Of a stretch of DNA of 64,000 bases, positions 14,317-60,905 are shown piece by piece. Under the pieces are notes generated by a model, which had not been told where the DNA came from, made no database searches, and worked only from the letters and a program-made list of their open reading frames with translations. Origin of the DNA: an uncultured bacterium (lineage in GTDB: Bacteria; Oederibacteriota; PGYV01; Palsa-1178). The DNA lies in the NCBI GenBank assembly GCA_937889595.1, contig CALAOR010000076.1, positions 159,783 through 223,782 on the forward strand. Direction: 5' to 3'. The translations under genes and the position numbers were made by a program. Numbering within the stretch: the first letter of the stretch is position 1; the number at the start of each line of letters is the position of its first letter.

Positions 14317-14321
14317 TGTAA

Positions 14322-25555: not shown

Positions 25556-26932
25556 TTATCTGTTAAAAACCGCCAGCGCGCCTTTTATCGCGGTTTTTAG
25601 TTCGCTAAACGAGCGGATCTTAAAGAGTTTCCTTATCAGGTATATGGGCCTTCCGTAGAATTCCTTATGCGCTTTTTTGTAGAACTCCTCCACCTTTTTG
25701 GAAGAAACTGATGGCAGTTCCATGACTGCGTTTGACAGATCGTACAAAGACCAGTCTTTTGTTTTTAAATAATTATTTTTATCCGCCCAGGCATACATTT
25801 CAGTGCCGGGATACGGCGTTGTGATGTTGAATAGCGCTATATCCGGGTCCAGTTTTTTCGCAAAATCCAGCGTTTGCTGCATGGTCTCTTCTGTCTCGCC
25901 CGGATTGCCCAGCATGAAAGCTGTCCTGCATTCTATGCCTATTTTCTTGGTCAGGGCCACCATTTCCTTTGCCTTGTCCATGGAGGTCATCTTTTTGATG
26001 TTTTTTAGTATCTGTTCGTTGCCGGATTCTATGCCGTACATTATCTGGTGGCAGCCCGCTTTTTTCATGAGCATTAAAGTTTCCCCGTCTATAAAATCAA
26101 CCCTGGCAAAACACACCCAGGTTAAGTCTATCTTCTCCTCTATGATCTGCCTGCAGAACTCCTGGACCTTGTGTTTATATGTCGTAAAAGTATCGTCGTA
26201 AAAGGATATCTCTTTTATGCCAAAATCGCGCTGCAGCATTTTTATCTCGTCAATTAAGTACCTGACCGAGTGCATACGCACGTGCCCGCCAAGGTAGGAA
26301 CCGAGGCAGAAAGTGCATTTGCCGGGGCAGCCGCGCGTGGATATCATGCTTATGACAGGCAGGCGCTTATAGGAACCCAGCGCGGCTTTGTAATTGGCGA
26401 TTGGCAGCAGGTGGTAAGCCGGAAAGGGCAGGGTATCGAGGTCCTTTATGAGTTCGCCGTAAGGGTTGTGGACATATTTTCCGTCTTTCCTGTATGACAA
26501 ACCCGGGATATTGTCCTTGTCCATGCCGTTGATGAGCTTAAGGAACGATTCTTCTCCCTCGCCGCGTATGATAAAATCGACCTGTGTATTGACCAGGACG
26601 TCTTCAGGCATCAAGGTCGGATGCACCCCGCCCAGGACAATGATTGCCTGCGGGAATTTAATCCTGCATGACGCCGCGTTTTCAAGCGCGCTTTTTACGG
26701 TCATAGTTGTTGCTGTAATGCCGATGAATCGGGGTATGTCCGCCACTGTTTCCAGCAGCGCGGCAAGGTCGAGTTTTTCGGCTATGGCGTCTATTATCCG
26801 CACTTTAATATTATTTTTTTCAAGGTACGAGGCTATATACGCAAGCCCAAGTGGAGGCATGGCGCCTGAGATTTTTTTCCAGATATTGCCTTCTCTGCTC
26901 ATCCAGCTCGGGTTGATCAGCAGTACGTTCAA
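25556..26932 (-). CDS. B12-binding (class B) radical SAM enzyme, copy 1
   Basis: TTG start with AAGGAG RBS. N-terminal cobalamin-binding-type fold (LLINP...MPPLGLAYIASYL). CX3CX2C cluster motif in RGCPGKCTFC. 458 aa, colinear paralog of 27850..29226. Confidence 0.85.
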   Translation of the reverse strand: MNVLLINPSWMSREGNIWKKISGAMPPLGLAYIASYLEKNNIKVRIIDAIAEKLDLAALLETVADIPRFIGITATTMTVKSALENAASCRIKFPQAIIVLGGVHPTLMPEDVLVNTQVDFIIRGEGEESFLKLINGMDKDNIPGLSYRKDGKYVHNPYGELIKDLDTLPFPAYHLLPIANYKAALGSYKRLPVISMISTRGCPGKCTFCLGSYLGGHVRMHSVRYLIDEIKMLQRDFGIKEISFYDDTFTTYKHKVQEFCRQIIEEKIDLTWVCFARVDFIDGETLMLMKKAGCHQIMYGIESGNEQILKNIKKMTSMDKAKEMVALTKKIGIECRTAFMLGNPGETEETMQQTLDFAKKLDPDIALFNITTPYPGTEMYAWADKNNYLKTKDWSLYDLSNAVMELPSVSSKKVEEFYKKAHKEFYGRPIYLIRKLFKIRSFSELKTAIKGALAVFNR

Positions 26933-26975
26933 GACTTCTTCTCCTTGTCGGAATATGCGTTTATTTTGACGGGGA

Positions 26976-27668
26976 TTAAAACCTGTACCTTATGAGCGTC
27001 CACAGGGCCTTAAAGCCGTCGATCGCTTTTATTTTTTTGCCGTCGCTATAACCCCTGCCGTAAAAACTGATAGGGACCTCGTATATCCTGTATTTTTTTT
27101 TCAGGATTTTCGCGGTTATTTCAGGCTCGATCTCAAACCCGTTTGAGCGCAGGTTTAAGCCTTTGAAAACGTCGCTGCGGAACATTTTATAGCAGGTTTC
27201 CATGTCCGTCAGCAGGGTGTTATAAAGCAGGTTTGTGGTGAAGTTAAGGATCTTATTTGCTATGTAATTCCAGAACAGGAAAGAGCGGTGGGCCCCTCCC
27301 AGGAACCTGGAGCCGTATACGACGTCGGCGTGGCCCTGCTCTATGGGTGCAAGCAGGTGCACAAAATCGGCAGGGTCATACTCCATGTCCGCGTCCTGGA
27401 TTATGGTAAAGTCGCTCTTAATATACCTGATGGCTTCCCGTATGGCCGAGCCCTTGCCGCCGTTTTTATCCTTGAAAACAATTGTCAGGGTTCTATCTTT
27501 TCTTGAAAGCGTTTTAAGTATGTTCCTTGTGCCGTCGGTGGAACCGTCGTCCACTATGATGATCTGTTTTTTATAGCCGGGAAGACGGGATTTTTTTACC
27601 GAGTTTACGGCCTGTTTTATGGTCTTTAGTTCGTTAAAAACAGGAATTATGACCGAAAGTGTTTTCAT
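26976..27668 (-). CDS. DPM1-like family 2 glycosyltransferase (candidate polyprenyl-phosphate sugar synthase), copy 1
   Basis: The ORF track extends to 27785. The start was moved to MKTLSVIIPVFNE by alignment with the 230-aa paralog at 29424..30116. GT-A motifs are present: IIVDDGSTDGT and IIQDADMEYDP. No TM segment. Confidence 0.8.
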   Translation of the reverse strand: MKTLSVIIPVFNELKTIKQAVNSVKKSRLPGYKKQIIIVDDGSTDGTRNILKTLSRKDRTLTIVFKDKNGGKGSAIREAIRYIKSDFTIIQDADMEYDPADFVHLLAPIEQGHADVVYGSRFLGGAHRSFLFWNYIANKILNFTTNLLYNTLLTDMETCYKMFRSDVFKGLNLRSNGFEIEPEITAKILKKKYRIYEVPISFYGRGYSDGKKIKAIDGFKALWTLIRYRF

Positions 27669-27778
27669 CTGCCGCGACAGCTCCTTAAAGTGGTTTATTA
27701 ACTGATGACATGATAACACAACGGCAAGTTTAAAGTCAAAGTTAAATTCAAAGTGCCGCCCGTGTTTCTGCTTTAAAA

Positions 27779-27806
27779 TTGACAATTTGTCAAATACTGT
27801 TATAAT
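27779..27806 (+). promoter_or_regulatory. consensus sigma70 promoter for radical SAM copy 2 (TTGACA-16-TATAAT), with the -35 inside a palindrome
   Basis: TTGACA at 27779-27784 and TATAAT at 27801-27806. TTGACAA-T-TTGTCAA (27779-27793) is a perfect inverted repeat. Confidence 0.6.
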
Positions 27807-27849
27807 CTATTAATATTTTCAATAATCGGGTGTCAAAAGAGGAGCGGCA

Positions 27850-29226
27850 ATGGATGTAATTTTGATTAATCCTTATCAAACCGCCAGAAAAGAAAACATA
27901 TGGACAAAAATACAAGGCGCCATGCCGCCCCTCGGGCTTGCTTATATAGCCTCTTATCTTGAGTCTAAAGGCATAGATTCCACGATATATGACATGAATG
28001 TAGAGCCGGGCGACGCCGCGGCCCAGGTAAGTCGCATCAGCGGGTCCCCCGACATAATAGGCATTACTTCGATGACAAGCGCTGTCATGAACGGATTTGC
28101 AATTGCGCAGCAATGCAGGTTGAAATTCCCAAAGGCAAAGATCGTTTTCGGCGGGGTTCATCCTACGGTACTGCCTGAAGATGTCCTGTCGCGGGAGTAC
28201 GTGGATTATGTGGTAAGAGGGGAAGGTGAAGAATCCTTTTATAAGTTCCTCAAAGGCGATGACATAAAAACCATTTCCGGATTTTCCTACAGGGAAAACG
28301 GGAAGATAATCCACAATCCGGATTCTGTCCTGATACATGACCTTGATATGCTCCCTGTACCGGCCTACAAAAAACTTCCCATAACCAAATATGTGCCGAC
28401 CATGGGGTCGTATAAAAGGCTTCCGGCAATCAGCATGCTTGCCACCAGGGGGTGTCCGGGCAAGTGCACGTATTGTTTTGGTTCCTTTCTCGGCGGCAAG
28501 GTCAGGATGCATTCCGTTGACTACCTCATAGGTGAAATAGAAATGCTGCAGCGCGAGTACGGGATCAGGGAAATACTTTTCTATGATGACACATTCACAA
28601 CCTACCGCAATAAAGTAAAGGATTTTTGTCTTAAAATAATTGAAAAAAAGATAGATGTTTCATGGGTGTGTTTCTCAAGGGTCGATACTATTGATGAGGA
28701 AATTTTAAGGCTGATGAAAAAGGCCGGCTGCCACCAGATAATGTATGGGATAGAATCAGGGAGCGAGGAAATACTTAAAAACATAAACAAAAAGATTAAT
28801 CTGGCAAAAGCTATGGAGGCGGTGAAAATAACAAAAAAAGTTGGGATTGAATGCAGGGCGACTTTCATGCTTGGAAACCCCGGTGAGACAGAAGCGACCA
28901 TACTGAAAACTATTAAGTTTGCGAAAGAAGTTGACCCTGACATAGCCCTTTTTAACGTTACCACCCCGTTTCCCGGGACACAGATGTTCGCGTGGGCAAA
29001 GCAAAACGGTTACCTCACGTCGGAAGACTGGGCCAAATATGATTTTTCGAACATGCTTATGAGGCTTCCTACGATCAGCCCGGAAAGAATAGAATATTAT
29101 TACAAAAAGGTATTCAGGATGTTTTACTGGCGTCCGTCCTACCTGTTTAAAAGGCTGCTGATGCTGCGCAGTTGGAACGATATAAAGACTGCTTTTAAAG
29201 CCCTCTTCGCGGTTTTTTTACACTGA
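27850..29226 (+). CDS. B12-binding (class B) radical SAM enzyme, copy 2
   Basis: GAGGAG RBS. RGCPGKCTYC cluster motif. 458 aa, colinear with copy 1 over its full length. Confidence 0.85.
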   Translation: MDVILINPYQTARKENIWTKIQGAMPPLGLAYIASYLESKGIDSTIYDMNVEPGDAAAQVSRISGSPDIIGITSMTSAVMNGFAIAQQCRLKFPKAKIVFGGVHPTVLPEDVLSREYVDYVVRGEGEESFYKFLKGDDIKTISGFSYRENGKIIHNPDSVLIHDLDMLPVPAYKKLPITKYVPTMGSYKRLPAISMLATRGCPGKCTYCFGSFLGGKVRMHSVDYLIGEIEMLQREYGIREILFYDDTFTTYRNKVKDFCLKIIEKKIDVSWVCFSRVDTIDEEILRLMKKAGCHQIMYGIESGSEEILKNINKKINLAKAMEAVKITKKVGIECRATFMLGNPGETEATILKTIKFAKEVDPDIALFNVTTPFPGTQMFAWAKQNGYLTSEDWAKYDFSNMLMRLPTISPERIEYYYKKVFRMFYWRPSYLFKRLLMLRSWNDIKTAFKALFAVFLH

Positions 29227-29423: not shown

Positions 29424-30116
29424 TTAAAACCTGTACTTTATGAGGGCCCACAGGGCCTTGAAGCCGTCAATTGCTTTCATCTTTTTGCCATCGGCATAAC
29501 CCCGGCCATAGAAATTGATCAGGGTCTCATAAATTCTGTATTTCTTTTTGAGCATTTTGGCCGTTATTTCGGGTTCGATTTTAAATCCGTTTGAACGAAG
29601 GTCAAGCCCCTTTATGACATCCGCTTTAAACATCTTATAGCAGGTTTCCATGTCTGTTAACAGGGTGTTATACAGGATGTTAGTCGTGAAGTTGAGGATT
29701 GTGTTTGCTATATAGTTCCAGAACAGGAAAGAACGGTGGGCTCCGCCTAAAAATCTGGAGCCGTAAACTACATCCGCGTGTCCCTGTTCTATGGGGGCGA
29801 GAAGATGCACGTAGTCTGCCGGGTCGTATTCCAGGTCCGCGTCCTGGATTATGACGTAATCGCCTGTTATGTATTTTATGCCCTCGCGTATTGCGGACCC
29901 TTTTCCGATGTTTTTATCCATGAAAATAATCCTGAATGTCCTGCCTTTTTTTGAAAGCGCCTTTAAAATGTCTCGCGTGCCGTCAGTGGAGCCGTCGTCC
30001 ACTATGATAATCTCTTTTTTAAACCCGGGAAGGGCGGATTTTTTCACCTGCGCCGCAGTTTCGCTTATGGTTTTTTTTTCGTTGTAAACCGGCATTATAA
30101 CGGATAGTTTTTTCAT
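29424..30116 (-). CDS. DPM1-like family 2 glycosyltransferase, copy 2
   Basis: MKKLSVIMPVYNE, IIVDDGSTDGT, IIQDADLEYDP. 230 aa and highly similar to copy 1 at both DNA and protein level. Confidence 0.85.
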   Translation of the reverse strand: MKKLSVIMPVYNEKKTISETAAQVKKSALPGFKKEIIIVDDGSTDGTRDILKALSKKGRTFRIIFMDKNIGKGSAIREGIKYITGDYVIIQDADLEYDPADYVHLLAPIEQGHADVVYGSRFLGGAHRSFLFWNYIANTILNFTTNILYNTLLTDMETCYKMFKADVIKGLDLRSNGFKIEPEITAKMLKKKYRIYETLINFYGRGYADGKKMKAIDGFKALWALIKYRF

Positions 30117-30373: not shown

Positions 30374-31156
30374 TTGAAAACTGTGATTTTAGCGGGCGGG
30401 ATCGGGTCCAGGATAAGCGAGGAAAGTTTTTTAAAACCAAAGCCCATGATAGAACTGGGCAACAGCATGCCTATTTTATGGCATATAATGAAATATTATT
30501 CGCATTTCGGGCATAATGATTTTATAATCTGCTGCGGTTATAAAGGCTATCTGATAAAGGAGTATTTTGCCAATTATTACCTTCACCGTTCCGATGTGAC
30601 ATTTGACTTCAAGAAAAAGAACGAGATGATAGTGCATAATAATGTGGCCGAACCCTGGAAAGTCACCCTTGTGGATACGGGCAATAACACAATGACCGGC
30701 GGCCGCGTAAAAAGAATACGCAAATATACGGGCAATGAAACTTTTATGCTCACATACGGGGACGGTGTGGCAAATGTTGATTTGCGTGAATTGCTGGCTT
30801 TTCACAGGAAAAAGAAAAAAATAGCCACTGTTACCGCGGTTCAGCCCGGCGGGCGTTTTGGGACCATAGAAATAAACAAACGTACCGGAAAAACGGTTTT
30901 CCTTGAAAAGAGAATGGAAGACGGCGGTTGGATTAACGGCGGTTTCATGGTTCTGGAACCGGAAATATTTGATCATATAAAGGGCGATAAAAGCGTATTT
31001 GAGAGGCAGGTACTTGAAAAACTCGGGGTAGAAAATGAGCTTTCCGCATATAAACACAGCGGTTTCTGGCAGTGCATGGACACCATGCGCGATAAGTCTT
31101 ACCTGGACGGGCTTGTTGAAAGCAAAAAGGCGCCATGGATGGTGTGGGAAAAGTGA
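30374..31156 (+). CDS. rfbF: glucose-1-phosphate cytidylyltransferase
   Basis: AGGAGG RBS with TTG start. MKTVILAGGIGSRISEES.LKPKPMIELG..PILWHIMKYYSHFGHNDFIICCGYKGYLIKEYFANYYLH.SDVTFD matches the RfbF/DdhA signature closely. Confidence 0.9.
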   Translation: MKTVILAGGIGSRISEESFLKPKPMIELGNSMPILWHIMKYYSHFGHNDFIICCGYKGYLIKEYFANYYLHRSDVTFDFKKKNEMIVHNNVAEPWKVTLVDTGNNTMTGGRVKRIRKYTGNETFMLTYGDGVANVDLRELLAFHRKKKKIATVTAVQPGGRFGTIEINKRTGKTVFLEKRMEDGGWINGGFMVLEPEIFDHIKGDKSVFERQVLEKLGVENELSAYKHSGFWQCMDTMRDKSYLDGLVESKKAPWMVWEK

Positions 31157-32205
31157 GCCTTTCATTTTACCGCGATAAGAAAGTTTTTGTCACCGGGCAT
31201 ACGGGGTTTAAAGGCTCCTGGTTGTGCCGCGCGCTTGTCCTGGCAGGCGTTAATGTCACGGGTTACGCGCTTGCCCCGGAGACCAAACCCGCGCTTTTTG
31301 AGCTGCTTGGTCTGAAAAATGACATGAAGTCCGTGATCGCCGACATAAGGGATTACAAAGCCCTCCTTAAATCCCTGAAAAAATCCAAACCCGAGATTAT
31401 TTTCCACATGGCTGCCCAGCCGCTTGTGAGGGAATCATACAAAAATCCGGTTTATACATATGAAACCAACGTTATGGGCACCGTTAATTTTCTGGAGGCA
31501 TGCAGGTATATCCCGGGCGCGCGTTCGATAGTGAACGTCACGACCGACAAGGTCTATGAAAACCGGGAAATGAACCGCGCCTTTAAGGAAGACGAGCCTC
31601 TTAACGGTTTTGACCCTTATTCAAATTCCAAATCATGCTCGGAACTGGTAACTTCAAGCTACAGGAACAGTTTTTATTCCGCAAAGGGCGCTGTGGCAGT
31701 GTCGACGGCCAGGTCCGGAAACGTCATCGGCGGCGGCGACTTTGCCGCGGACAGGATCATCCCTGACTGTGTCAGGGCTTTAAAGGCGGGCAAACCGGTT
31801 GTAGTGCGCAATCCGGGGGCCGTAAGGCCGTACCAGCACGTGCTTGACTGCATTTCGGGGTACCTTTTGCTGGCTGAAAAACAATATGACGCCGGGCTTT
31901 CCGGCAGCTATAATTTCGGGCCGGACAAATCGGACGTTGTTGATAATGCCGCGCTCGTGGAGCTGTTTTTAGACGCCTGGGGAGGCGGCAGTCGCGTACA
32001 CAGGCATGACAACGGTCCGCATGAAGCCCGTTTCCTGAGGCTGGACTGTTCCAGGGCGAAAAAAATCCTCGGGTGGAAGCCGCGCATGAAAATAGGGGAA
32101 GCTGTCGGATTGACCGCCGAGTGGAGCAGGGCATACCTGGATAAGTCGGGGCATGCGGCATGCGTGGACAGGCAGATAAACGAATATTTCGGGAAGGGCT
32201 TATAA
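31153..32205 (+). CDS. rfbG: CDP-glucose 4,6-dehydratase
   Basis: FYRDKKVFVTGHTGFKGSWL, extended-SDR YSNSK motif, ~350 aa. The GTG at 31153 gives a GTGA overlap with the rfbF stop, the same coupling style as other junctions here. ATG 31135 is the alternative start. Confidence 0.88.
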   Translation: MSLSFYRDKKVFVTGHTGFKGSWLCRALVLAGVNVTGYALAPETKPALFELLGLKNDMKSVIADIRDYKALLKSLKKSKPEIIFHMAAQPLVRESYKNPVYTYETNVMGTVNFLEACRYIPGARSIVNVTTDKVYENREMNRAFKEDEPLNGFDPYSNSKSCSELVTSSYRNSFYSAKGAVAVSTARSGNVIGGGDFAADRIIPDCVRALKAGKPVVVRNPGAVRPYQHVLDCISGYLLLAEKQYDAGLSGSYNFGPDKSDVVDNAALVELFLDAWGGGSRVHRHDNGPHEARFLRLDCSRAKKILGWKPRMKIGEAVGLTAEWSRAYLDKSGHAACVDRQINEYFGKGL

Positions 32206-33551: not shown

Positions 33552-33949
33552 CCGGTTTTGTAAAGAAGTCTTTGGAAAACAGAAAAGTGCGGTTTCTTTT
33601 TGTGGGCGTCCTGAACACAGTCGTGGGATACGGCACATACGCGCTGTTTATATACCTGAAGATGCATTATATTTTGGCAATGATATTCTCAAGTATTATA
33701 TCGGTGACGCACAGCTATCTGTGGAACAAGCATTTTACTTTTAAAAGCACGGATAAGTCCTTTGCGGAAGCAATAAGATTTGTCATGGTATATGCGGTAG
33801 GCATACTTTTGAATATGGTATTGCTTTACGTGTGCATAACTTTATGCCGGATAAACGCCTATGCGGCGGGCGCGACAACCCTTTTAATAACGACCGTGAT
33901 AAGCTACATAGGGCACAAAAAAATAAGTTTTAGGAGCGCAAAAGGCTGA
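33536..33949 (+). CDS. GtrA-family small membrane protein (candidate polyprenyl-phosphate-sugar translocase)
   Basis: 137 aa with 4 predicted TM helices. RFLFVGVLNTVVGYGTYALF...SYLWNKHFTFKS is typical of the GtrA family. Confidence 0.75.
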   Translation: MRKKVAGFVKKSLENRKVRFLFVGVLNTVVGYGTYALFIYLKMHYILAMIFSSIISVTHSYLWNKHFTFKSTDKSFAEAIRFVMVYAVGILLNMVLLYVCITLCRINAYAAGATTLLITTVISYIGHKKISFRSAKG

Positions 33950-35757: not shown

Positions 35758-35775
35758 AAAAAAGGGAAAAATATC

Positions 35776-42825: not shown

Positions 42826-43063
42826 TCCAAAAGAAATTCTCCGTTGCTTTTTCCCGCAGCCTGCAAGGCAAGGGATTTGCCGGGCATTGCCAAAATTCAG
42901 CTGTAAAAAATTGTCAATATTTTGTTTGCTTTTATAAGGGTAATATAGTAAAATTTATTTGTTGGCTTGAAGATACAAGATCCGGCAATGGACGGCGCGC
43001 TTTTAAGTTGGCCATTGCTGAAATTACCCAAAACGGGCGCGGGCCGTCAAGGAGACCTGTAAT

Positions 43064-51557: not shown

Positions 51558-51558
51558 T

Positions 51559-54276
51559 ATGATTAAAAAAGTTGCTTTGTTTCTTCTTTTGGCGTTATGG
51601 ATAACCGGACAGTATTTTATTGCGGTCAAACACTTATACGAGGGTTTATTCATTAGTGTGGCGGCAATCGGCATAGGTTCCGTTATTATTTTGGTGAAAC
51701 GTTCGTACGATAACTATGTTCCTTACGCGGCGCTTTTAGGCATTATAGCCGCTTTTACCGCTTCCTCTGTCGTAAGACATAATCCGCAGGTGGGTTTGTT
51801 GTTATTCGTGTTGTCAGGCCTGCTTATATTTATCGCAAAGCCAGAGGGAGAAAAACTGACGGTTTTGGGTGATGTGCCCGAAAAATCTTACCCGATGGAA
51901 AAATGGGAACCGTATTTTTTGACAATTCTGCTTATTTTTTCCGGTATTATCCGTTTTTATGACCTGCTTAATCTGCATCAGGGAGTTTATGGCCATGATT
52001 CCATACTTTTTTCGAATGTAGAAACACTGATGGCTTCTCCATTGTATATTCCGCACATCGGGGGGGGGTCAGATTGGCCAACTCTTGTTTATTATCAGGC
52101 GGCTTTTTTTGGGAAACTGTTCGGTTGGAACATCGGTTCAATGCGGATGGAATCCGCTTGTTGGGGGTTGTTGGATATTGCCGCGCTGTACTTTTTGATA
52201 AGAATGCTGGCTTCGCCCTGGGCGGCCGCGATCATGACTGCGCTTTTTGCCGTTAGTGTTCCTCACTTGAATTTTTCAAGGACGTTTTTTCCAGGCACTG
52301 TTGTTATGCTGGCGCCTATACTGGGTTTTTCTTTGCTGCTTACCGCGGTGAAATTAGACAAATGGAATTGGTTCATGTTCGCCGGATTTGCCGCCGGGTT
52401 GAGTCTTCACGGGTATGTCCCCGGCAGGATCGTTTTCCTGATGTTCCTGTTATGGTTTATATGGATATGGCTGTTTTACAGGAAAAAATTCCCTAAAATA
52501 AAAAATGTCATTATATTTTGGATAGCTTTTATAGCGATAGCTTCACCAGTGATATGGTTCGCCATCACAAATCCTGAACAATATAACGGATATGTGAACA
52601 GCGTCAATCCCAATAAAAGCGCTGGAATAATGGGATATATAACCATGTTTATTAACCAGATAGGCTCTTACGCGGGAATGTTTCACGTAAAAGGGGCTTG
52701 GGATACTCTTTTTCATGAGCCGTTCGAGCCTATATTGGACTGGTTCACCGGGGCTCTGTTCCCGATGGGTCTTTTTATGTGCCTGCTGATGTTCTGGAAA
52801 CCCATTCCGGTGTTTATTTTCATCTACTTTATCGGAGGGATGGCGCCGGCCATGCTCGGCGGTGGCTGTTCTCCGCAACCAGATGTCCGCAGGATGCTCT
52901 TGGCACTGCCGGTAATATATATATTCGGTGGAATTGCTTTTGAAAGGCTGCGGCTGGTGGCCCGGAATAATTTTGGCGGTAAAGGGTCCGGGGTGTCGTT
53001 CTGGGTCTTTGTTTTTACTTTCCTGCTGGCACTGCCTTTTGGCGCAAATGAAATCAATACTTTCCTGCGCCAGCAAAAGGATCCGATCACGCTGGCCATT
53101 ACCGAACATTACAGCTTTCTCGCGGGAAAGGAAATACAAAAGTACGCCGGAGATGAGATTAAACTGATGAACCTTTACGATTTGACGAACAATTCATGCG
53201 TGCTGCTTCCGCGCAATGTTAAATACACCGTGGTAAAATGGATAGACGATATGATGGTCCTGAATCCGGCAAAGGATAATGTGTTATTACTTGAACCTGT
53301 CTATGAATCCATGATCCCCATGCTGAAAAGAATGTTTCCGGACTGTGATGTAAAGATATTCAGGGAAGAAAGAACAGAACGGATCACAAGGTTTGATAAT
53401 AATCCGGCCGTAACGGAAACGATGAAGTATACCGATCCTTACAATAAATTTGTCTATCTTGTCAGGGTTTTTATTCCAAAAGAAGATTCTGAAAAGTTCA
53501 CAAATGAACTTTTTGTCGCCGGACCGGGCGGGCAGGAAAGGAAATCCGTGTATCTTCCCGAGTTTGCTTCCGTATATTCGGGACGCCAGGTGACTATCTC
53601 GGGAGGCCTTATATTGAAACAGGAAGGCGACCTTGTAAAATTTAAAATGGATTGGGGAGGTTTTACCCTGCTAATTGACGGGAAACAGGCTAATTTTGGA
53701 TCGCAGCGTCAGCTTGAAGGAGGCACACATTACTTTGTTTTAAGGGGCACGGTACCACGGGGCGCCAAAACCGGCCTGCCCTTGAGTATATTGCGGGGGG
53801 AAATTGATCTTAAGGCTGAAGGACGGGTTGTGGCCATTGCCCCTTCGGCCGGGGTTGTCATCACTTTTTCACAGGGTAAACAACTGCTTGCGAACGCACC
53901 GGATTCAATAACGAGGCGTTCCATTGCTCCCATACGCCGTTTCTATCACACCATGGATTATTACATGCCATTTCCTGTAACCGTAAAAGGGTATATTTCT
54001 TTCCCTGAAAAAGGTGAGTATGAGTTTATGGCGCCGGGTTATATTTATAACCGGATACTAATTGACGGCAAAGTCGTATTTGACAACTATGAATACGGCA
54101 CTGTTAAGAATAAAGCATCAATATGGCTGGAAAAAAACCGGAAGGTTACGTTTGTTGTTGAAAATATGGTTAATCAATCCGATGACAGACTCAGGGGTAT
54201 TATTGTTTATTACAGGGAAAAAGGCAGAGTCCCCTGGAATATTCTCTCGCCTGATTTTATAGATCAATTAAAATAA
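51559..54276 (+). CDS. GT-C fold glycosyltransferase with PA14-like C-terminal modules, paralog 3
   Basis: ATG 51559 follows GAGGAA (the ORF track starts at 51529, overlapping the previous gene). GVYGHDSILF loop and multi-TM core. PA14-like VKGYISFPEKGEYEFMAPGYIYNRILIDGKVVFD. A G9 tract lies at 52060-52068. Confidence 0.7.
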   Translation: MIKKVALFLLLALWITGQYFIAVKHLYEGLFISVAAIGIGSVIILVKRSYDNYVPYAALLGIIAAFTASSVVRHNPQVGLLLFVLSGLLIFIAKPEGEKLTVLGDVPEKSYPMEKWEPYFLTILLIFSGIIRFYDLLNLHQGVYGHDSILFSNVETLMASPLYIPHIGGGSDWPTLVYYQAAFFGKLFGWNIGSMRMESACWGLLDIAALYFLIRMLASPWAAAIMTALFAVSVPHLNFSRTFFPGTVVMLAPILGFSLLLTAVKLDKWNWFMFAGFAAGLSLHGYVPGRIVFLMFLLWFIWIWLFYRKKFPKIKNVIIFWIAFIAIASPVIWFAITNPEQYNGYVNSVNPNKSAGIMGYITMFINQIGSYAGMFHVKGAWDTLFHEPFEPILDWFTGALFPMGLFMCLLMFWKPIPVFIFIYFIGGMAPAMLGGGCSPQPDVRRMLLALPVIYIFGGIAFERLRLVARNNFGGKGSGVSFWVFVFTFLLALPFGANEINTFLRQQKDPITLAITEHYSFLAGKEIQKYAGDEIKLMNLYDLTNNSCVLLPRNVKYTVVKWIDDMMVLNPAKDNVLLLEPVYESMIPMLKRMFPDCDVKIFREERTERITRFDNNPAVTETMKYTDPYNKFVYLVRVFIPKEDSEKFTNELFVAGPGGQERKSVYLPEFASVYSGRQVTISGGLILKQEGDLVKFKMDWGGFTLLIDGKQANFGSQRQLEGGTHYFVLRGTVPRGAKTGLPLSILRGEIDLKAEGRVVAIAPSAGVVITFSQGKQLLANAPDSITRRSIAPIRRFYHTMDYYMPFPVTVKGYISFPEKGEYEFMAPGYIYNRILIDGKVVFDNYEYGTVKNKASIWLEKNRKVTFVVENMVNQSDDRLRGIIVYYREKGRVPWNILSPDFIDQLK

Positions 54277-54365: not shown

Positions 54366-54629
54366 ATGTTCATAAAAAAGAATGATTTATTCCTTGTCAG
54401 CGTAGTGTTTTGTTTTATTTCGATTTTGGGTTTGACCCTATTAATAATGGCCCGGCAGGATTATTTGGCCGCTATTATAAGGTTTGGCGGCCCTGTCGTC
54501 GCTTTATTCTTGGCTATTGCCGGGCAAACGGTTGTAAAGGGCAATCCAGGTGCGGGGGTGATCTTATATGCGCTTGCCGCGGCATGCGGCAGGAAAGTGG
54601 GATGTTTAAATGAAACTATCAAGGTTTAA
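54366..54629 (+). CDS. small hypothetical membrane protein (2 TM)
   Basis: 87 aa with two hydrophobic helices and no recognisable family. It overlaps the next gene by 20 nt. Coding status is uncertain. Confidence 0.3.
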   Translation: MFIKKNDLFLVSVVFCFISILGLTLLIMARQDYLAAIIRFGGPVVALFLAIAGQTVVKGNPGAGVILYALAAACGRKVGCLNETIKV

Positions 54630-55269
54630 TTTAAAGATGCAATGGTTTAAAACAGGGATAAGGGAGCTTGAATCGGTAGATTGGGCTTATTTTCTTGATG
54701 CGTACGGAAAGTTGGTGAAAAAAACTGACAGGGTACTTGAGATTGGAGCTTCTCATATAGCCAGAACGAAGCAACTGGCCGCAAGCTGCGCTGAACTTAC
54801 CGGACTCGAAATAATGCCTGAGAGAAAACCGGATGATTTTGGCAATGTCAGGTTTAAAACAGGCAATTGGGAAAAGCTTTCCGGAATTTTCGAGCCGGAG
54901 AGTTTTGATATGGTGTTGTCCAGCCATGTTATTGAACATGTGGAACATGACGTTATGGCTATGAAAGAATTGTATAAAACGCTGAAGCCGGGCGGGGCCG
55001 CAATAATCACGACCCCCAACATCATGCGCATGGCGGCCGTTATTGAAAAACTGTTCAAAGGCCCGAAAATATTTCCCTGGTTCGAGCATATGCGGGAGTA
55101 TGATGAGCCGGGTCTGATCCGGTTAATTAAAGAAGCCGGATTTATAAAATATGAAATTATCCCGATCGCTTTTGGCATAACAGGGTGGAAACTGTTTATT
55201 TACATTGAACCTGTCCCGCAAAAATTAAGGAAATACTGCTGTTTTTGGATGGTTAAGTTGTTCAAATAG
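54610..55269 (+). CDS. SAM-dependent methyltransferase (type 11-like)
   Basis: VLEIGAS (motif I), MVLSSHVIEHVEHD and LKPGGAAIITTPN. Confidence 0.75.
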   Translation: MKLSRFNLKMQWFKTGIRELESVDWAYFLDAYGKLVKKTDRVLEIGASHIARTKQLAASCAELTGLEIMPERKPDDFGNVRFKTGNWEKLSGIFEPESFDMVLSSHVIEHVEHDVMAMKELYKTLKPGGAAIITTPNIMRMAAVIEKLFKGPKIFPWFEHMREYDEPGLIRLIKEAGFIKYEIIPIAFGITGWKLFIYIEPVPQKLRKYCCFWMVKLFK

Positions 55270-55341: not shown

Positions 55342-56124
55342 GTGAAAAAGTTCAATAATCCGATTAAAGATTTTGCATATTTTTTGTATCGGTGGATCAA
55401 TCCTGTTTTTGATCCGGTTAAATTAGCCCTCTTTATACCCAGGTATGCCGTTTTTTTTGCTAGCTGGATGAGATATTCACTGATGAGGGGGTCTGAAAAA
55501 AGCGGCCTTATCGATTCTTTTCCAAGCCTTTACGATAACCTTAAAAAAACGCCTTTTGATTCGCACTACTTTTATCAGGATATATGGGCCTTTAAAAAGG
55601 TAAAAATATCAGGCGCGCCAGCCCATGTTGATGTGGGATCCAGGATTGATTATGTAGGCTTTCTTACCGCAATCTGCAATGTCACATTCATAGATATCAG
55701 GCCGCTCCTGGCTGATCTGGATAATTATAAATCTATTGCCGGTAGCATATTGAAAATGCCTTATGAGGATAATTCAGTTTCATCCATATCCTGCCTGCAC
55801 GTCGCCGAACACATAGGCCTTGGAAGATACGGAGATCCGCTGGATCCCTTCGGTACGAAAAAGGCGTGCACGGAGTTGAAGCGGGTATTGGCTGTCGGTG
55901 GGAGCATCTATTTTTCTCTGCCGGTAGGCAGACCCAGGCTTTGTTTTAATTCACACAGAATTCATTCGCCCGGACGCATATTGGAATACTTTGAAGGACT
56001 TGAACTGGTTGAACTTTCCGGAATTAATGATGACGGCAGATTTATAACGGACATAAAGTATGATGTTCTTGAAAATTCTGACTATGCGTGCGGTCTTTTT
56101 CATTTTAAGAAGCCTGTAAAATAG
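55342..56124 (+). CDS. DUF268-like methyltransferase-fold protein
   Basis: GGAG RBS with GTG start. VDVGS, SCLHVAEHIGLGRYGDPLDPFG and LAVGGSIYFSLPVG resemble the DUF268 signature as recalled. Confidence 0.6.
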   Translation: MKKFNNPIKDFAYFLYRWINPVFDPVKLALFIPRYAVFFASWMRYSLMRGSEKSGLIDSFPSLYDNLKKTPFDSHYFYQDIWAFKKVKISGAPAHVDVGSRIDYVGFLTAICNVTFIDIRPLLADLDNYKSIAGSILKMPYEDNSVSSISCLHVAEHIGLGRYGDPLDPFGTKKACTELKRVLAVGGSIYFSLPVGRPRLCFNSHRIHSPGRILEYFEGLELVELSGINDDGRFITDIKYDVLENSDYACGLFHFKKPVK

Positions 56125-56403: not shown

Positions 56404-59400
56404 ATGAATTATAATCATATAAAAAATATTCTGATCGGTATAGCCATGATTTTACTGATTTTGGGTCAATTTTTTATAATAATTGCGCCAAACCAAATGT
56501 TTCTGGGCATAATTTTAAATATTATTTGCGCGTTATTATTCGCGCTTTCTTTTACCGGAAAATTCACTGTTATATTGGATTTTTTTGGAAGACTTTTTGC
56601 GCCGAAGCCATTGCATATTCCTGTTGTAGTTAAGGCAGGCAACCACAAGAAGGATAAGGCAGGGATCCCGGACAATCTGCAGGATTCTCACCATAACCTG
56701 CCAAGGATCCCGTCTCTTAATCTATACGGATGGCTGCAGAAATTAGGAAATGACGGTATAAAGTTTTTTCTTCCCAAGTGGATCTTTTTTGTATTTTCGG
56801 TGTTTTTATTTATAACTGCACAGTTTTTATTTATTGGCGGAAAGCTAATACCTGCCATAGCGTTACTGGGAGTCATTATCATTACTCTTGTTTTTGTATT
56901 CAGGCTGAAAGCGCCGGGATTGGATGTGAATATAAATTTTGGCAACGGCTTAAAAGTGCTGTCCATGTTGTCAGGTCTGGTTTTAATAGCTTTTGGATGG
57001 TTCCTGCTTATAAATCAAAAAATTACAGTCCAGGAATGGGGAGTAGCCTTAACAGTCCCAGGTTGTATACTAGCTTTTTTAGGGCTGCCGCAACGGTTGG
57101 TGTTCGATAACCATGAGACTGCGTCAAAAAGTGATATACTTTTCGAAAAATCCGGATTTTTTAATAATTATCTTATAAAAGTGGTTCTGATAATACTTTC
57201 TTTTGTTTCCATTAAAATAGGTTACAGTATAATGATGAGTCCGGAATACAATATGTATTCAATGTTGTTTTACGGTTTGGCTATAATGTTCGTATTCTTC
57301 AGCTTTCCTCTCATTAATTTTGCCGAAAAACCAGTTGATAATAAATATTTGGATATGGTAAAACTGGCGTTTGCCGTAGTCGCAATTTTTATCGCTTATT
57401 TGGGGCAGCGTGATTTTGTTGCGGGAAAGGTAAATGTCGCTATAATCAAATATATTATTGCTGCTGCTATATTTATTATTGCTTTTCCGGTTTATTCGTC
57501 CAAACTCGGGGAGGAAAAGGAACCGTTCCCCATTAAAATAGAAGTGATGTTCCTGCTTGTTATTATGATCGTGGGTATATTTCTCAGGTTGTATGAAATT
57601 GATTTGAGACCGTTTGGCCTTGAAAATGATGAGGCAGGCGGTTACACATACAGGCTTGACGCCCACGGCGCGCCAACAGTGCCTTTAAATGTTGGAAATT
57701 TCGGCATTGCGGTTCACATAGTGCAGTTTTTTAGCGCCATTATCGGTGAGTTAAATAGGACCGGTATCAAAATGCTTGGCGTATCTGTCGGATTGATCTC
57801 CATACCGATAATGTATTTTTTTATAAGGTCGCTTTTGAACCCCCGTTCGGCAATATTTGCGACTACAATATTTACTTTTTTAAGATGGAACCTATATTAT
57901 TCCAGGGCTGGGCACGGGGCTGTATTGTCAAATGCCGTGGAAATATTGGCTTTTTTCTTTCTTTTTAAGGCTATTGAAACCAGGAAGTCTCTTATTTGGT
58001 TCTTGGCCGGGCTATGTGTGGGACTCACCTGGCACGGTGTTATGACGGAGTTCTTGCTTATAATTCCAGTTGTTCTTTATTTTGTCATTAGTTCGTTCGC
58101 GCATAAGGGATTTCTTAAATCTAATTTAATAGGTATATTTGCATTTCTTTTCGGCTTTTGGATCTTTGGTTCCATGATCGTCCACAATTTTCCTATGAAT
58201 AAAACAATTTACTTTTCAAGGGTGGCGGAAGTTTCTGTGTTCAGCAAGGATCCCAACGCTCCAAGCAAAAATCCGGCAAAGGGTATAGTGGAAAACACCA
58301 AACTTGTGCTGCTTATGTTTAACCATCAAGGTGATTCAAGGCAGCGTAATTCCGGCGGCAATCCTTTCGATCCAACTATAGATTTCACAAGCTCGATTTT
58401 TTATGCTTTGGGATTTCTATATGTTATATATTACAGCAAATACTATATGTTTTTTATACTGGCCATGGCATTTTTATCCCAGGCTGCGGGATCCATTTTT
58501 TCTATTGAAGCGCCTTCCGCGATGAGGGCCATAGGAACCATGATACCAATGTTTTTCCTTATTGCCGTAATTTTTGACAAAATATGGCTTGCATTCAGAA
58601 AAGTATTTGGAAAAAAAATGGAGTTTATTTATTTCCCGCTAATACTGGCGATTTTTCTCGTGCCAATAATAAAGGATAACTATTATCAGTATTTTGGAAG
58701 ATGGATAGGGGGATTGGATGAGTTGACCACGGCAACCGGGCTTTACAGTAAAAGCCTGGGAAACAAGTGGCGGGTTATGCTGTATACCAATTTGTATTAT
58801 CCCGGCCATCCGCCTTTTAAAATAAACCGTTCAGAAAAGGCTAATACAGCTTCAAGGCTGACAACCGCCTTGACCTACCTGAAACGTGTTGATACGGATA
58901 ATTTCGCGTTGTTATTTCACTATGATACATGGCAAAATCTTGACAGCATTAAAAAACATTATTTTCCCGAATCCAAGTTGGAAATTGTTGACCATAAATG
59001 GTTCAATAAAAAACTTAAGCCAGGTGAAGGCTTAGGTGGCTTTGCAAAGGCCGTACTTGTGACAAATGAAGAATTAAAAAAGAAAATGGGATTAACTGGA
59101 AACTATTCGTTTGGCGGAGGCCCGTTCCCGAACGAAGAACCGGAATTTAAAGTGCGGGATTCTTCAATGGTGCCGTATGTGGCCACATGGAGCGGCGTTT
59201 TCCTGGCTCCATATTACGGCAGATTCAAATTTGAAAACAACGGTACGGCCGACTTTACGCTTAATATTGACTATAAAAATATACCGAAAGGTTCGGATGT
59301 GCTGCTTGCAGAAGGGTTCCATAAAATTAAGATCACTGCTTCGAGGAAAAAGGGCTCGGATACTTTGTCGTTAAATGTCAGGGCAATCGGTCTGACCGAC

Positions 59401-59901
59401 ACATCGTTCAGGGGCACAGAAATGATAAAACTTGACAGCAAGTATCTGTATAACTTTGGAATAATAGGATTGCACGGCTATTATATCAACGGTAATAGTT
59501 TTGATCAGACCAATAAGGATTCCGAGATAATAGATTCCAACATACAGTTTGATGGGGCGGTCTATACAACTTCGGCTTATTGGAACGGAACAATAAACAT
59601 GCCGGACTCGGGCCAATACTTTATTACTGCATCATGTAACGGATATGTAAGGATAGTCGTTGACGGAAACAGCTACTGGGAGCAAATTAATGACCGTTCC
59701 ACGGAATATGCCGAAAAATATTTCAGCAACAAGCCCATGAAACATGTCCTATCTTTCAATTTGTCCAAAGGAAAGCACAGGATAACCATATATAATCTCA
59801 ATTCAAATATAATGCATTTGATGTGGAATAAAGTGGGGCAACCGTCAGAACCTGTTCCTGTAGACGCGCTTGAGCCTGATTACGACATATCAAAAATTTA
59901 A
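56404..59901 (+). CDS. GT-C fold glycosyltransferase with long N-terminal TM extension and PA14-like C-terminal modules, paralog 4
   Basis: AGGAGG RBS. GLENDEAGGY loop. YFFIRSLLNPRSAIFATTIFTFLRWNLYYSRA core. PA14-like ATWSGVFLAPYYGRFKFENNG and YWNGTINMPDSGQYFITASCNGYVRIVVDGNSYW. Confidence 0.7.
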   Translation: MNYNHIKNILIGIAMILLILGQFFIIIAPNQMFLGIILNIICALLFALSFTGKFTVILDFFGRLFAPKPLHIPVVVKAGNHKKDKAGIPDNLQDSHHNLPRIPSLNLYGWLQKLGNDGIKFFLPKWIFFVFSVFLFITAQFLFIGGKLIPAIALLGVIIITLVFVFRLKAPGLDVNINFGNGLKVLSMLSGLVLIAFGWFLLINQKITVQEWGVALTVPGCILAFLGLPQRLVFDNHETASKSDILFEKSGFFNNYLIKVVLIILSFVSIKIGYSIMMSPEYNMYSMLFYGLAIMFVFFSFPLINFAEKPVDNKYLDMVKLAFAVVAIFIAYLGQRDFVAGKVNVAIIKYIIAAAIFIIAFPVYSSKLGEEKEPFPIKIEVMFLLVIMIVGIFLRLYEIDLRPFGLENDEAGGYTYRLDAHGAPTVPLNVGNFGIAVHIVQFFSAIIGELNRTGIKMLGVSVGLISIPIMYFFIRSLLNPRSAIFATTIFTFLRWNLYYSRAGHGAVLSNAVEILAFFFLFKAIETRKSLIWFLAGLCVGLTWHGVMTEFLLIIPVVLYFVISSFAHKGFLKSNLIGIFAFLFGFWIFGSMIVHNFPMNKTIYFSRVAEVSVFSKDPNAPSKNPAKGIVENTKLVLLMFNHQGDSRQRNSGGNPFDPTIDFTSSIFYALGFLYVIYYSKYYMFFILAMAFLSQAAGSIFSIEAPSAMRAIGTMIPMFFLIAVIFDKIWLAFRKVFGKKMEFIYFPLILAIFLVPIIKDNYYQYFGRWIGGLDELTTATGLYSKSLGNKWRVMLYTNLYYPGHPPFKINRSEKANTASRLTTALTYLKRVDTDNFALLFHYDTWQNLDSIKKHYFPESKLEIVDHKWFNKKLKPGEGLGGFAKAVLVTNEELKKKMGLTGNYSFGGGPFPNEEPEFKVRDSSMVPYVATWSGVFLAPYYGRFKFENNGTADFTLNIDYKNIPKGSDVLLAEGFHKIKITASRKKGSDTLSLNVRAIGLTDTSFRGTEMIKLDSKYLYNFGIIGLHGYYINGNSFDQTNKDSEIIDSNIQFDGAVYTTSAYWNGTINMPDSGQYFITASCNGYVRIVVDGNSYWEQINDRSTEYAEKYFSNKPMKHVLSFNLSKGKHRITIYNLNSNIMHLMWNKVGQPSEPVPVDALEPDYDISKI

Positions 59902-59927
59902 TTAAAATTTTTTAAAGGAGAGCACCA

Positions 59928-60905
59928 ATGGCAAAGTCAAAAAAAACGAGAAGAAAAGAACCAAAAGTAGTTGCAACTGTATTGCCGGTCAAGGAGGCGT
60001 CGCCGAAAAAAAACGGGGTGCTGATATTCTTTTTATTCGTGCTGGTGATTTTTACGTCTGTTGAAATATTTATGGTTGCACAGCAAAAAATAAAGCAAAA
60101 TAAAAGGCCGGAATTTATCATGTCCTGGCCGTCCGAATATAAAAAGGGACTTACCTCCATGGGCGAATACGGAGATTTTATTTATGGTGTGGAAAATACC
60201 AGTACCGGCCTTGTTTACAAAATAGACAAGAAGGACGGGTCTTTAGCTTTTCTCTTTCAGCTGCCGGAACTGGTTTATTCCGCGGTGCAGGATTCAAAAG
60301 GTGATATTTACATACTTGATAAAAAGAATACAATCCATGTGTTTGGACCGGATAATAAACTTAAGAAGAAAATAAATGTTGATGACGCGAAGACCGCGGG
60401 TTGGATAGAGGTTGATTCAAAAGATAACTTCTATGTGGTGGATCTTACTTCTTCGATAATAACAAAATATGACCCGAATTTCAAAAAGATATTCAGTTTT
60501 GGCGGGAGAGGCATAGGCAATGAGAATTTTACAAATGTTGGAAAAGTTTTTGACGGGCCGAATGACCAGTTGTATTGCGTGAATATGCTGGATGAAAATA
60601 AGGCGCAGATTAAAATTTTTGATTCCAACGGCAAATATAAAAAAAGCTGGCTTATAAAGAATGTGAAGAAGTTCACATTTCTTGAAAATCTCGCAATCTT
60701 ACCGGATGGGTATGTTTATTTAAATTCTTTTGCCGACAGTCTGATATATGTTTTCGACAACAATGGAAAATTCAAGGGTACATTTGATACGGACATTGGC
60801 AAAAAGTTTTTAATTACAAGCCCATCTTCGATAACCGGCGGTAAAAACGGTATTATTTACGTTGCGACCCATGATCTGGTTGCTTTTAAACCGATAAAGT
60901 ATTAA
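59928..60905 (+). CDS. membrane-anchored NHL-repeat / beta-propeller protein
   Basis: AGGAG RBS. N-terminal K/R-rich segment plus a TM helix (VLIFFLFVLVIFTSV). Repeated blades are present: DSKGDIYILD, DSKDNFYVVD, PNDQLYCVNM, DGYVYLNS and NGIIYVAT. Confidence 0.6.
   Translation: MAKSKKTRRKEPKVVATVLPVKEASPKKNGVLIFFLFVLVIFTSVEIFMVAQQKIKQNKRPEFIMSWPSEYKKGLTSMGEYGDFIYGVENTSTGLVYKIDKKDGSLAFLFQLPELVYSAVQDSKGDIYILDKKNTIHVFGPDNKLKKKINVDDAKTAGWIEVDSKDNFYVVDLTSSIITKYDPNFKKIFSFGGRGIGNENFTNVGKVFDGPNDQLYCVNMLDENKAQIKIFDSNGKYKKSWLIKNVKKFTFLENLAILPDGYVYLNSFADSLIYVFDNNGKFKGTFDTDIGKKFLITSPSSITGGKNGIIYVATHDLVAFKPIKY

Follow-up and report, generated by a model that had tools for sequence, protein, structure and literature searches.

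A 64,000-nucleotide stretch of contig CALAOR010000076.1 (GenBank assembly GCA_937889595.1, positions 159,783 to 223,782 of the forward strand), called the window here, comes from an uncultured bacterium of the GTDB lineage Oederibacteriota. It carries a 35-kb gene island (25556-60905) that, judged from sequence, very probably encodes a periplasmic glycosylation system dependent on lipid-phosphate-linked sugars. Gene content was established from the listing of open reading frames (ORFs) and from Pfam and NCBIfam scans of their translations. The left edge of the island has genes on both strands, and from 30374 to 60905 all genes lie on the + strand. Overlapping stop/start pairs are frequent in this block, and gaps of 238-613 nt with promoter-like sites precede several of its GT-C glycosyltransferases (GT-Cs). 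The block is followed by a bidirectional intrinsic terminator (60931-60957), a hairpin of the form AAAAAAGGCGGCC-GAAA-GGCCGCTTTTTTT (GGCGGCC-GAAA-GGCCGC) with A6 and T7 on its flanks. A perfect sigma-70 consensus lies 3′ of it (61121-61149).

The co-directional block opens with sugar-nucleotide genes. A glucose-1-phosphate cytidylyltransferase (30374-31156; TIGR02623, 398.6 against a cut-off of 300), a CDP-glucose 4,6-dehydratase (31135-32205; TIGR02622, 437.7 against 278) and an RfbH/E1-type 3-dehydrase (32160-33551; NF011936, 717.9 against 423) are the counterparts of DdhA, DdhB and DdhC/RfbH (E1) of the CDP-3,6-dideoxyhexose route, all above curated cut-offs. For the E3 reductase of this route (DdhD/AscD) no ferredoxin-reductase-type match was found among the island ORFs; here and below, absence from the island refers to family matches of called ORFs of at least 100 aa. 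E3 may be encoded elsewhere or replaced. Further along the block are an AHAS/YerE-like thiamine diphosphate (TPP) enzyme (33949-35757), an HMGL-like aldolase (35776-37371), a short-chain dehydrogenase/reductase (SDR; 37423-38088) and an AroB-related cyclase-type enzyme of TIGR04425 (“sugar phosphate phospholyase (cyclizing)”; 38085-39128). Enzymes that use TPP are established as a means of attaching acyl branches to sugars (PMC9306805), and this set of TPP enzyme, aldolase, SDR and AroB-like enzyme, without E3, hints that the sugar made is branched, chain-extended or carbocyclic.

Further modification is suggested by three S-adenosylmethionine (SAM) methyltransferase-type genes and two radical SAM genes. 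The former comprise a Methyltransf_24 protein with MORN repeats (50451-51557), whose gene overlaps the start of the next GT-C gene by 29 nt, a Methyltransf_11 enzyme (54610-55269) and a DUF268 enzyme (55342-56124), all on the + strand. The latter encode class B (B12-binding) enzymes identified by family scans, radical SAM 1 (25556-26932, - strand) and radical SAM 2 (27850-29226, + strand). Among named families, radical SAM 1 comes closest to HpnJ (274 bits, cut-off 578). Its orthologs in two related contigs (L050, 3483-4898; L051, 3182-4567) are 73-76% identical, compared with 49% for the adjoining GT-C. Radical SAM 1 may modify a lipid-linked sugar.

Three GT2 glycosyltransferases are candidates for placing such sugars on a lipid carrier. 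GT2a (26976-27785, - strand), a candidate polyprenyl-phosphate-sugar synthase, is a soluble enzyme resembling AglJ and dolichyl-phosphate mannose synthase (DPMS), and matches the DPMS of Pyrococcus furiosus (5mlz) at E 1.7e-17. GT2b (29424-30116, - strand) is a second soluble enzyme, DPMS/AglJ/PpgS-like in family scans. GT2c (41872-42825, + strand) is GtrB/PgfS/ArnC-like and ends in two transmembrane (TM) helices. It matches the structurally solved GtrB homolog sll0501 (5ekp) over its full length at E 3.5e-49 and ArnC at E 6e-28; among NCBIfam models PgfS scores best, with 177.7 bits where the cut-off is 500. An NDP-sugar epimerase gene (40979-41896, + strand) overlaps that of GT2c by 25 nt, and the two form a single fused 670-aa protein in two related contigs (L046 and L050). 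By the Rosetta-stone argument, this fusion suggests that the lipid carrier receives an epimerised NDP-hexose. A GtrA-family small membrane protein of 137 aa (33536-33949, + strand; PF04138, 88.2 bits against 26.1) is a putative lipid-sugar translocase. The island ORFs contain no match to an initiating phosphoglycosyl transferase, Wzx, Wzy, WaaL or a cytoplasmic GT1/GT4 enzyme. Since genes for assembly and ligation of an undecaprenyl-diphosphate-linked oligosaccharide are missing from the island, transfers by this machinery must be of single sugars, in the periplasm, to an acceptor made elsewhere.

Five candidate periplasmic transferases are encoded on the + strand. One is a GT87-like polytopic GT-C with about 11-13 TM segments (39198-40895). 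The other four, GTC1 (43064-46249), GTC2 (46863-50153), GTC3 (51529-54276) and GTC4 (56404-59901), are paralogs of 915-1165 aa sharing 20-27% identity. Each combines a PMT_2 core with PA14 at the C-terminus, seen as a dyad in GTC2, the paralog whose ortholog is conserved across contigs. They are divergent members of PMT_2 (PF13231), scoring 38-40 bits against a cut-off of 26.1. None of the four matches PF02366 (PMT) or carries a MIR domain, and the GT-Cs of the window match only PMT_2 and GT87, with no match to the YfhO family. The PA14 modules are weak in single-sequence Pfam scans; a profile built from 40 family members matches the PA14 dyad of RsgI3 (6qe7) at E 4.6e-26 and PA14 of anthrax protective antigen at E 1e-10. 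Immediately 3′ of GTC4 is a gene for a membrane-anchored NHL-like β-propeller (59928-60905), which recurs 3′ of GT-Cs in other contigs (L046, L050, L053, L055). In further proteins (P0004/5/8/9) an NHL propeller is fused to PMT_2 and PA14, which supports a functional link of the island propeller with the GT-Cs.

The AlphaFold 2 model of GTC2 is confident (pLDDT 87.2, pTM 0.86) and consists of an N-terminal bundle, a GT-C core starting near residue 272, a periplasmic α/β domain and two β-sandwich modules, the last matching the RsgI3-type dyad in Foldseek at E about 2e-9. The bundle (residues 1 to about 265; 46863-47660) adds eight predicted helices without a Pfam match; GTC3 has a shorter version of it and GTC4 a longer one. 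Loop 1 of GTC2 carries a PPG-x3-D304-E305 motif that is nearly invariant among the 40 family members, at least 90% of which keep D304. All four paralogs have the form PPG-x3-D-E/D (SDD, GDE, GHD and NDE). With Foldseek, the membrane core of GTC2 matches AglB (1e-7), ArnT (3e-6) and, at rank 21 behind subunits of oligosaccharyltransferase (OST) and ArnT, Pmt4 (7e-5); STT3, AftA, ALG9, PglB and EmbA/B/C are also matched. On this modelled structure the core has a generic GT-C-A fold and sides with neither PMTs nor lipid A enzymes. Profile comparison gives a similar picture: ArnT (5ezm) and AglB are matched equally well, ArnT at E 3.2e-3 along about 110 residues. There is no NCBIfam match of the GTCs to ArnT, and ArnA/B/D/E/F genes were not found in the window. 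A single-sequence search of the PDB with GTC1 returned no match. The discrimination between PMT, ArnT and other enzymes that the preliminary description had sought from the fold was not obtained, as neither a grouping with lipid A- or O-antigen-modifying enzymes nor an assignment to PMTs emerged.

These structural matches bring in the principal competing explanation, in which the same donor and flipping machinery serves a surface glycan or glycolipid, for example an exopolysaccharide, lipopolysaccharide (LPS)/O-antigen or a different outer-membrane glycolipid. Comparable cases would be Gtr serotype conversion or the mycobacterial arabinan and mannan that GT-Cs build stepwise, and PA14 would hold the growing glycan. 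The Foldseek matches to AftA, EmbA/B/C and ArnT fit it, as do the homology of PA14 to the polysaccharide-sensing RsgI3-type dyad and the presence of an RfbH-type CDP-dideoxyhexose pathway, which is named for LPS biosynthesis. Against it, no match is specific to ArnT or Gtr-type enzymes, and the island and the related loci examined lack a phosphoglycosyl transferase, Wzx/Wzy, WaaL and an ABC exporter.

The family to which GTC1-4 belong is large. An initial impression that it was near-unique (10 hits in a k-mer-prefiltered search) was overturned by an exhaustive HMMER search giving 3141 hits at E <= 1e-30. Among the 150 best-scoring clusters at 50% identity, dozens match over their full length. 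A look-up of the window's own GT-C gave no record. In GTDB-representative genomes, a search with profile A3 yielded no ortholog and only distant PMT_2 relatives (at most 27% identity, over the TM core), from Patescibacteria, DPANN and others. Divergence in the broad alignments A2 and A4 was too great for pattern scans. No characterised member was found, including by NCBIfam and PDB comparisons.

Upstream of the island is an array of surface-protein genes, four of which, on the + strand, encode long threonine-rich linkers. ThrL1 (5737-9390) has a Sec signal, an N-terminal array of Ig-like domains, the linker (aa 644-907; nt 7666-8457), FlgD_ig and a putative T9SS-type C-terminal domain (CTD; T9SS, type IX secretion system). 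ThrL2 (9762-13634; linker aa 682-979, nt 11805-12698) and ThrL3 (14886-19001; linker aa 695-1064, nt 16968-18077) share this architecture, and ThrL4 (22998-25535) combines a distinct N-domain, a linker (aa 230-529; nt 23685-24584) and FlgD_ig. The linkers are 264-370 aa long and 44-45% Thr, with zero Thr-Thr dipeptides. Thr-x-Thr occurs 106-148 times per linker, and the two that are cleanly delimited have 125 and 122 occurrences versus about 56-60 ± 4 in shuffled sequence. Translation of a DNA repeat was considered as the source of these tracts and rejected, as the linker sequences differ among paralogs and the protein feature is kept in other contigs. All four proteins begin with signal-like hydrophobic segments, so the linkers should pass through the compartment in which the GT-C active sites lie.

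In the model of the ThrL2 N-domain (pLDDT 72.5), a chain of Ig-like β-sandwiches resembles PrgB, Cna/Cnm and macroglobulin domains. Going by this model, the ThrL proteins appear to be adhesin-like stalked surface proteins and not enzymes. ThrL4 homologs carry CBM_3, and one homolog of a ThrL N-domain, at 59% identity, is annotated as Candidatus Goldbacteria, which makes that phylum, or a relative of it, the probable source of the window. FlgD_ig is strong in ThrL1 and ThrL2 (67-74 bits), with their CTDs at 20.7-20.9 bits on Por_Secre_tail, below its cut-off of 27. The 3′ 1.69 kb of these two genes (7711-9390 versus 11946-13634), covering the end of the linker and the C-terminal domains, are 88% identical in DNA, compared with about 29% protein identity between the N-terminal domains, a contrast suggestive of a mosaic origin or of gene conversion in the recent past. 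Two genes resembling IS200/Y1 transposases (4640-5191 and 19512-20057), about 31% identical to each other and barely over the Pfam cut-offs, lie between the surface-protein genes and could promote rearrangement of the array.

A DUF11-repeat surface protein (20576-22993, + strand), with a ThrL-like N-domain and neither linker nor CTD, is encoded directly before ThrL4. Its stop codon lies 4 nt before the ThrL4 start, an arrangement kept in L046, L052 and L061. The two may form a two-gene unit whose second product alone bears the stalk and sorting signal. That they are a single frameshifted gene was rejected, given that the split is kept in three other contigs and that ThrL4 has a signal-like N-terminus of its own.

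Every class of part that the preliminary description names is borne out. GT2, GtrA and GT-C components of a three-component glycosylation system (Gtr/Arn/CsbB-GtcA-YfhO/Pgf type) pass family tests and are all present at the positions given there, including three GT2s of the polyprenyl-phosphate-sugar-synthase type (two DPMS-like, one matching sll0501 throughout) and four PA14-bearing GT-C paralogs (by PMT_2 scores, the family profile match to 6qe7 and Foldseek) with a fifth, GT87-like polytopic protein. The CDP-sugar pathway, the two B12-radical SAM enzymes, the three methyltransferases, the terminator-closed co-directional block and, downstream, a CTD protein and a PorV/PorQ-like barrel are likewise recovered. 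Its count of five upstream alternating-Thr proteins has to be lowered to four, as the proteins at 2683-4431 and 20576-22993 have no such linker.

Gene order around GTC2 recurs in independent metagenome contigs (L-numbered loci), which were annotated by BLAST against the proteins of the window. Three of them (L046, L052, L061) keep the order of a ThrL3-like gene, the DUF11 protein gene, a ThrL4-like gene, GT2a on the - strand and the GTC2 ortholog, with GT-C identities of 47-58% and T-rich tracts of 250-400 residues in both linker proteins. A 46% identical GTC3 ortholog lies at the end of L046. No gene of the cluster is better conserved than GT2a (60-86% identity), which in every case lies between the GTC2 ortholog and the last of the Thr-linker genes. 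Radical SAM 1 orthologs adjoin GTC2 orthologs in L050/L052 and L051. L047 carries a Thr-linker protein, GT2a, a short-linker CTD protein (CTD585, below) and a PorV-family gene, with a GT-C and a radical SAM gene 5 kb further on. The AT-rich L053, L056 and L057 (27-28% GC) have CTD585, a PorV-family gene, a polytopic protein, a GT-C, a 596-aa PMT_2 protein and a propeller in one tight same-strand run. In L049 (44% GC), where the flanks hold housekeeping genes and a polyprenyl synthase, the start codon of a GT-C is overlapped by the gene of a CTD protein (534 aa) whose T-rich linker is short, and in L060 T-rich CTD ORFs follow the GT-C. GT-C orthologs recurrently adjoin CTD proteins in lineages of 24-51% GC. 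This recurrence counts against a glycan acceptor, as do the translational coupling and the housekeeping context of L049.

The downstream pair of genes introduces a second alternative. CTD585 (61166-62923, + strand), which is secreted, combines a short P/T linker with a T9SS type A sorting domain (TIGR04183, 24.4 bits against 23). Its gene is followed by that of a PorV/PorQ-family outer-membrane barrel (62981-63997, + strand, running off the window; NF033709, 108.5 bits against 90). A CTD585 ortholog and a PorV-family gene accompany GTC2 orthologs in L047, L053, L056 and L057. With the window itself, this makes the pair the most widely conserved neighbour of GTC2 orthologs, and glycolipid anchors are known to tether T9SS cargo (PMC7468200). 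The island could on these grounds build or modify a glycolipid that anchors T9SS-type cargo after CTD removal, analogous to A-LPS, with CTD585 and the barrel acting as a glycan-delivery pair of the PorZ/PorQ type. We consider this highly improbable: the match of CTD585 to PorZ is confined to the sorting domain, known A-LPS and linking-sugar routes employ cytoplasmic Wbp/Vim enzymes and not GT-Cs (PMC7468200), and PorV-family genes also stand beside CTD clusters devoid of GT-Cs, as in L090. That locus (7319-22133) has a series of T-rich-linker CTD proteins, one of them a GH8 enzyme, and ahead of these it encodes an ECF sigma factor, a FlgD_ig protein and a PorV-like (UPF0164) protein. Particular cargo clusters may have PorV-family paralogs of their own.

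Base composition raises the question of whether the island is a single system. Its GC fraction runs in blocks, from 0.50 (32-36 kb) to 0.40 (38-42 kb), 0.44-0.46 (42-46 kb), 0.39-0.40 (46-52 kb), 0.46 (52-54 kb) and 0.38-0.42 beyond, a mosaic consistent with cassette-wise assembly. The 35 kb could accordingly be a patchwork of separately acquired envelope-sugar cassettes with different acceptors (the CDP-sugar operon, the epimerase/GtrB/GT-C genes, the GT2a/GTC2 core and others), adjacent to surface-protein genes through a shared envelope-locus organisation. The blocks of 38 to 50% GC agree with this, and so do the gaps of 238-613 nt with promoter-like sites ahead of several GT-Cs and the related contigs, which share only the GT2a/GTC2/radical SAM/propeller core and have the rest swapped (in L046, L052 and L061, for example, transketolase genes replace the CDP pathway). 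Such a patchwork is nevertheless very unlikely as the whole explanation, given a co-directional block from 30374 to 60905 with many stop/start overlaps and a single strong terminator, the location of GtrA within the CDP-sugar operon, and transferases that all belong to the lipid-phosphate-sugar class, which argues for one shared logic.

For the acceptor, the Thr-rich and P/T linkers of the CTD proteins are our tentative first choice, at a little under an even chance. They are favoured because their association with GT-Cs recurs across lineages of very different GC, because one case is translationally coupled (L049), because glycan-assembly genes are missing and because close precedents exist in the Caldicellulosiruptor bescii GT39 enzyme and in streptococcal GtrB/PgtC2 and PgfS/PgfM1. 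Co-occurrence points the same way: 13 PA14-GT-C loci (175 kb) contain 11 T-rich and 11 CTD-motif ORFs, whereas 70 loci of other PMT_2 relatives (940 kb) contain one T-rich and no CTD-motif ORF, the two sets differing in taxonomy.

A number of observations weigh against linkers as acceptors. The comparison with PMT_2 relatives is confounded by taxonomy and is weak evidence. L090, part of a 908-kb contig from a related organism, carries several T-rich-linker CTD proteins but lacks a GT-C within 10 kb. Linker proteins of this kind are common in the lineage, so that adjacency could be partly coincidental or inherited synteny. Conversely, L092 and L093 (57% GC) have four tandem GT-Cs without CTD or T-rich neighbours. 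Fold and sequence do not place the GTCs specifically with protein O-mannosyltransferases, and no PMT structure was found at E <= 0.01 in the PDB profile search. PA14 modules bind carbohydrate and 3,6-dideoxyhexose-type sugars are classically O-antigen components, so a glycan acceptor also fits. Finally, we infer the acceptor from gene neighbourhood, and likewise infer the donor identities, the flipping and the order of action. The linker proteins away from GT-Cs and the multi-paralog GT-C arrays without CTD proteins both suit the glycan-acceptor explanation set out above, which is possible but on balance unlikely. In L092 (4220-16717) and L093 (2726-14293), the array runs PMT_2, PMT_2 with NHL propeller, PMT_2 with PA14 and NHL propeller, and PMT_2 with PA14, and its neighbours are NTPase/TPR-type proteins. 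The proposal in the preliminary description that the Thr linkers are the acceptors is thus supported in part, by the recurring neighbourhoods, and weakened by L090, L092 and L093. The test of co-occurrence that it suggested came out positive, with the taxonomic confounding and counter-examples just described.

With linkers as acceptors, the island would operate as follows. Cytoplasmic enzymes would make a CDP-3,6-dideoxyhexose-type donor, elaborated by the YerE-like TPP enzyme, the aldolase, the reductase, the AroB-like enzyme, the methyltransferases and the B12-radical-SAM enzymes; a second donor would be an epimerised UDP-hexose. The three GT2s, one GtrB-like and two DPMS-like, would load single sugars onto polyprenyl phosphate, and the GtrA protein would aid the crossing of the inner membrane by the lipid-linked sugars. 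At the periplasmic face, transfer would fall to the five GT-Cs with their acidic loop-1 motif (in GTC2, D304/E305). All but the GT87-like enzyme carry lectin-type PA14, and the membrane-anchored β-propeller would act as a partner. The likeliest acceptors would be hydroxyls in the surface proteins encoded nearby, on their 264-370-residue T-x-T linkers and on shorter P/T linkers. Because these proteins are Sec-exported and bear CTDs, modification would take place as they cross the periplasm, ahead of T9SS-type export. With four divergent PA14 modules, each enzyme may be able to recognise the glycan of its predecessor, producing a heterogeneous multi-sugar coat.

An extended form of this mechanism, decidedly unlikely in our estimate, is a periplasmic “mucin-type” line in which four lectin-guided GT-Cs and the propeller build an O-glycan stepwise on every second residue of the stalk. 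If true, its building blocks would be lipid-linked monosaccharides, among them one modified by radical SAM chemistry and one branched dideoxy sugar; it would act on T-x-T stalks of ~300 residues in T9SS-type cargo and be coupled to a dedicated PorV-family shuttle. It would amount to stepwise extracytoplasmic, protein-templated glycan synthesis, undescribed for bacteria.

Should the linkers prove to be acceptors, O-glycosylation of disordered Thr-rich regions by GT-Cs would extend from Firmicutes and Actinobacteria to an uncultured diderm phylum and be linked to T9SS-type surface display, and a large uncharacterised GT-C family with a built-in lectin module would be defined. The island also offers candidate enzymes for unusual polyprenyl-phosphate sugars, such as radical-SAM-modified or branched dideoxyhexoses. 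Goldbacteria are reportedly cellulolytic, so glycan-protected linkers could stabilise surface biomass-binding proteins, as in C. bescii. The Goldbacteria paper (PMC7031533) makes no mention of linkers or glycosylation.

Two observations concern the window beyond the island. An ATPase of the type II secretion/type IV pilus kind (T2SSE and MshEN; 714-2672) has, between its N-domain and ATPase domain, a Gln/Pro-rich insert that is internally duplicated (QAPSTPQYQAPAYVPPQ.QQHQ, twice). An Rfam scan of the window returned zero hits at gathering thresholds, and a riboswitch is not evident.

Among known systems, that of C. bescii is a close likeness. Its GT39 enzyme Cbes_1864 adjoins celA and is needed to glycosylate enzymes with alternating Thr-Pro linkers; its loss abolishes glycosylation and exposes the linkers to cleavage (PMC6151902). 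Both systems have a GT-C with a predicted lipid-phospho-sugar donor, encoded beside secreted multidomain proteins with Thr-alternating linkers. By its description, Cbes_1864 is a single 556-aa enzyme of a Gram-positive bacterium, without PA14, an extra N-terminal TM bundle or a paralog array, whereas the island has four PA14-bearing PMT_2-type GT-Cs, in a diderm-type setting with T9SS-type sorting domains. Streptococci use GtrB/PgtC2 and PgfS/PgfM1 to glycosylate disordered regions rich in Ser/Thr, and genes for the Thr-rich adhesins that serve as Pgf substrates lie in the pgf cluster itself (PMC12041528). The cassette of epimerase, PgfS-like GT2 and GT-C at 40979-46249 recalls the Pgf system (PgfS/PgfE/PgfM1/PgfM2; PMC12041528, PMC5856776). 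However, PgfM1, PgfM2 and PgtC2 are YfhO-family GT-Cs as opposed to PMT_2 with PA14, GT2c is not a PgfS ortholog (177.7 against 500), and the streptococcal systems add single sugars, compared with several donor pathways and five GT-Cs in the island.

The GtrA/GtrB/GtrC and ArnC/ArnT systems share with the island a GT2 with C-terminal TM helices, a GtrA protein and a periplasmic polytopic transferase; the island differs in having no match to Gtr-type or ArnT models, no Arn partners and no phage or O-antigen context. Actinobacterial Ppm1/PMT protein O-mannosylation offers a DPMS-like GT2, a GT-C with an acidic loop-1 motif and Sec-exported proteins with Thr/Pro-rich stretches. The window GT-Cs depart from it in lacking a PF02366 match and MIR, and in resembling Pmt4 less than OST subunits and ArnT. 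Mycobacterial Emb, Aft and PimE/GT87 enzymes are similar in their succession of GT-C paralogs, polyprenyl-phosphate-sugar donors, GtrA-like protein and GT87-type enzyme. Their C-terminal carbohydrate-binding domains hold a glycan acceptor, and the acceptors of these arrays are lipoglycans and cell-wall polysaccharide, with no PA14 and no link to CTD surface proteins. PA14 as a lectin within a glycosyltransferase has a precedent (PMC13018970). The term “novel system” in the preliminary description was too strong, since GT-C glycosylation of Thr/Pro linkers encoded beside the transferase is documented (PMC6151902, PMC12041528). The mechanism class and the glycosylation of Thr-rich linkers are known already. 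What is new is a GT-C family with an extra N-terminal bundle, predicted to have eight helices, a PA14 dyad and a propeller partner; the combination of four to five GT-C paralogs with several exotic donor pathways; and the association of such GT-Cs, in an uncultured phylum, with T9SS-type CTD proteins and a PorV-family gene.

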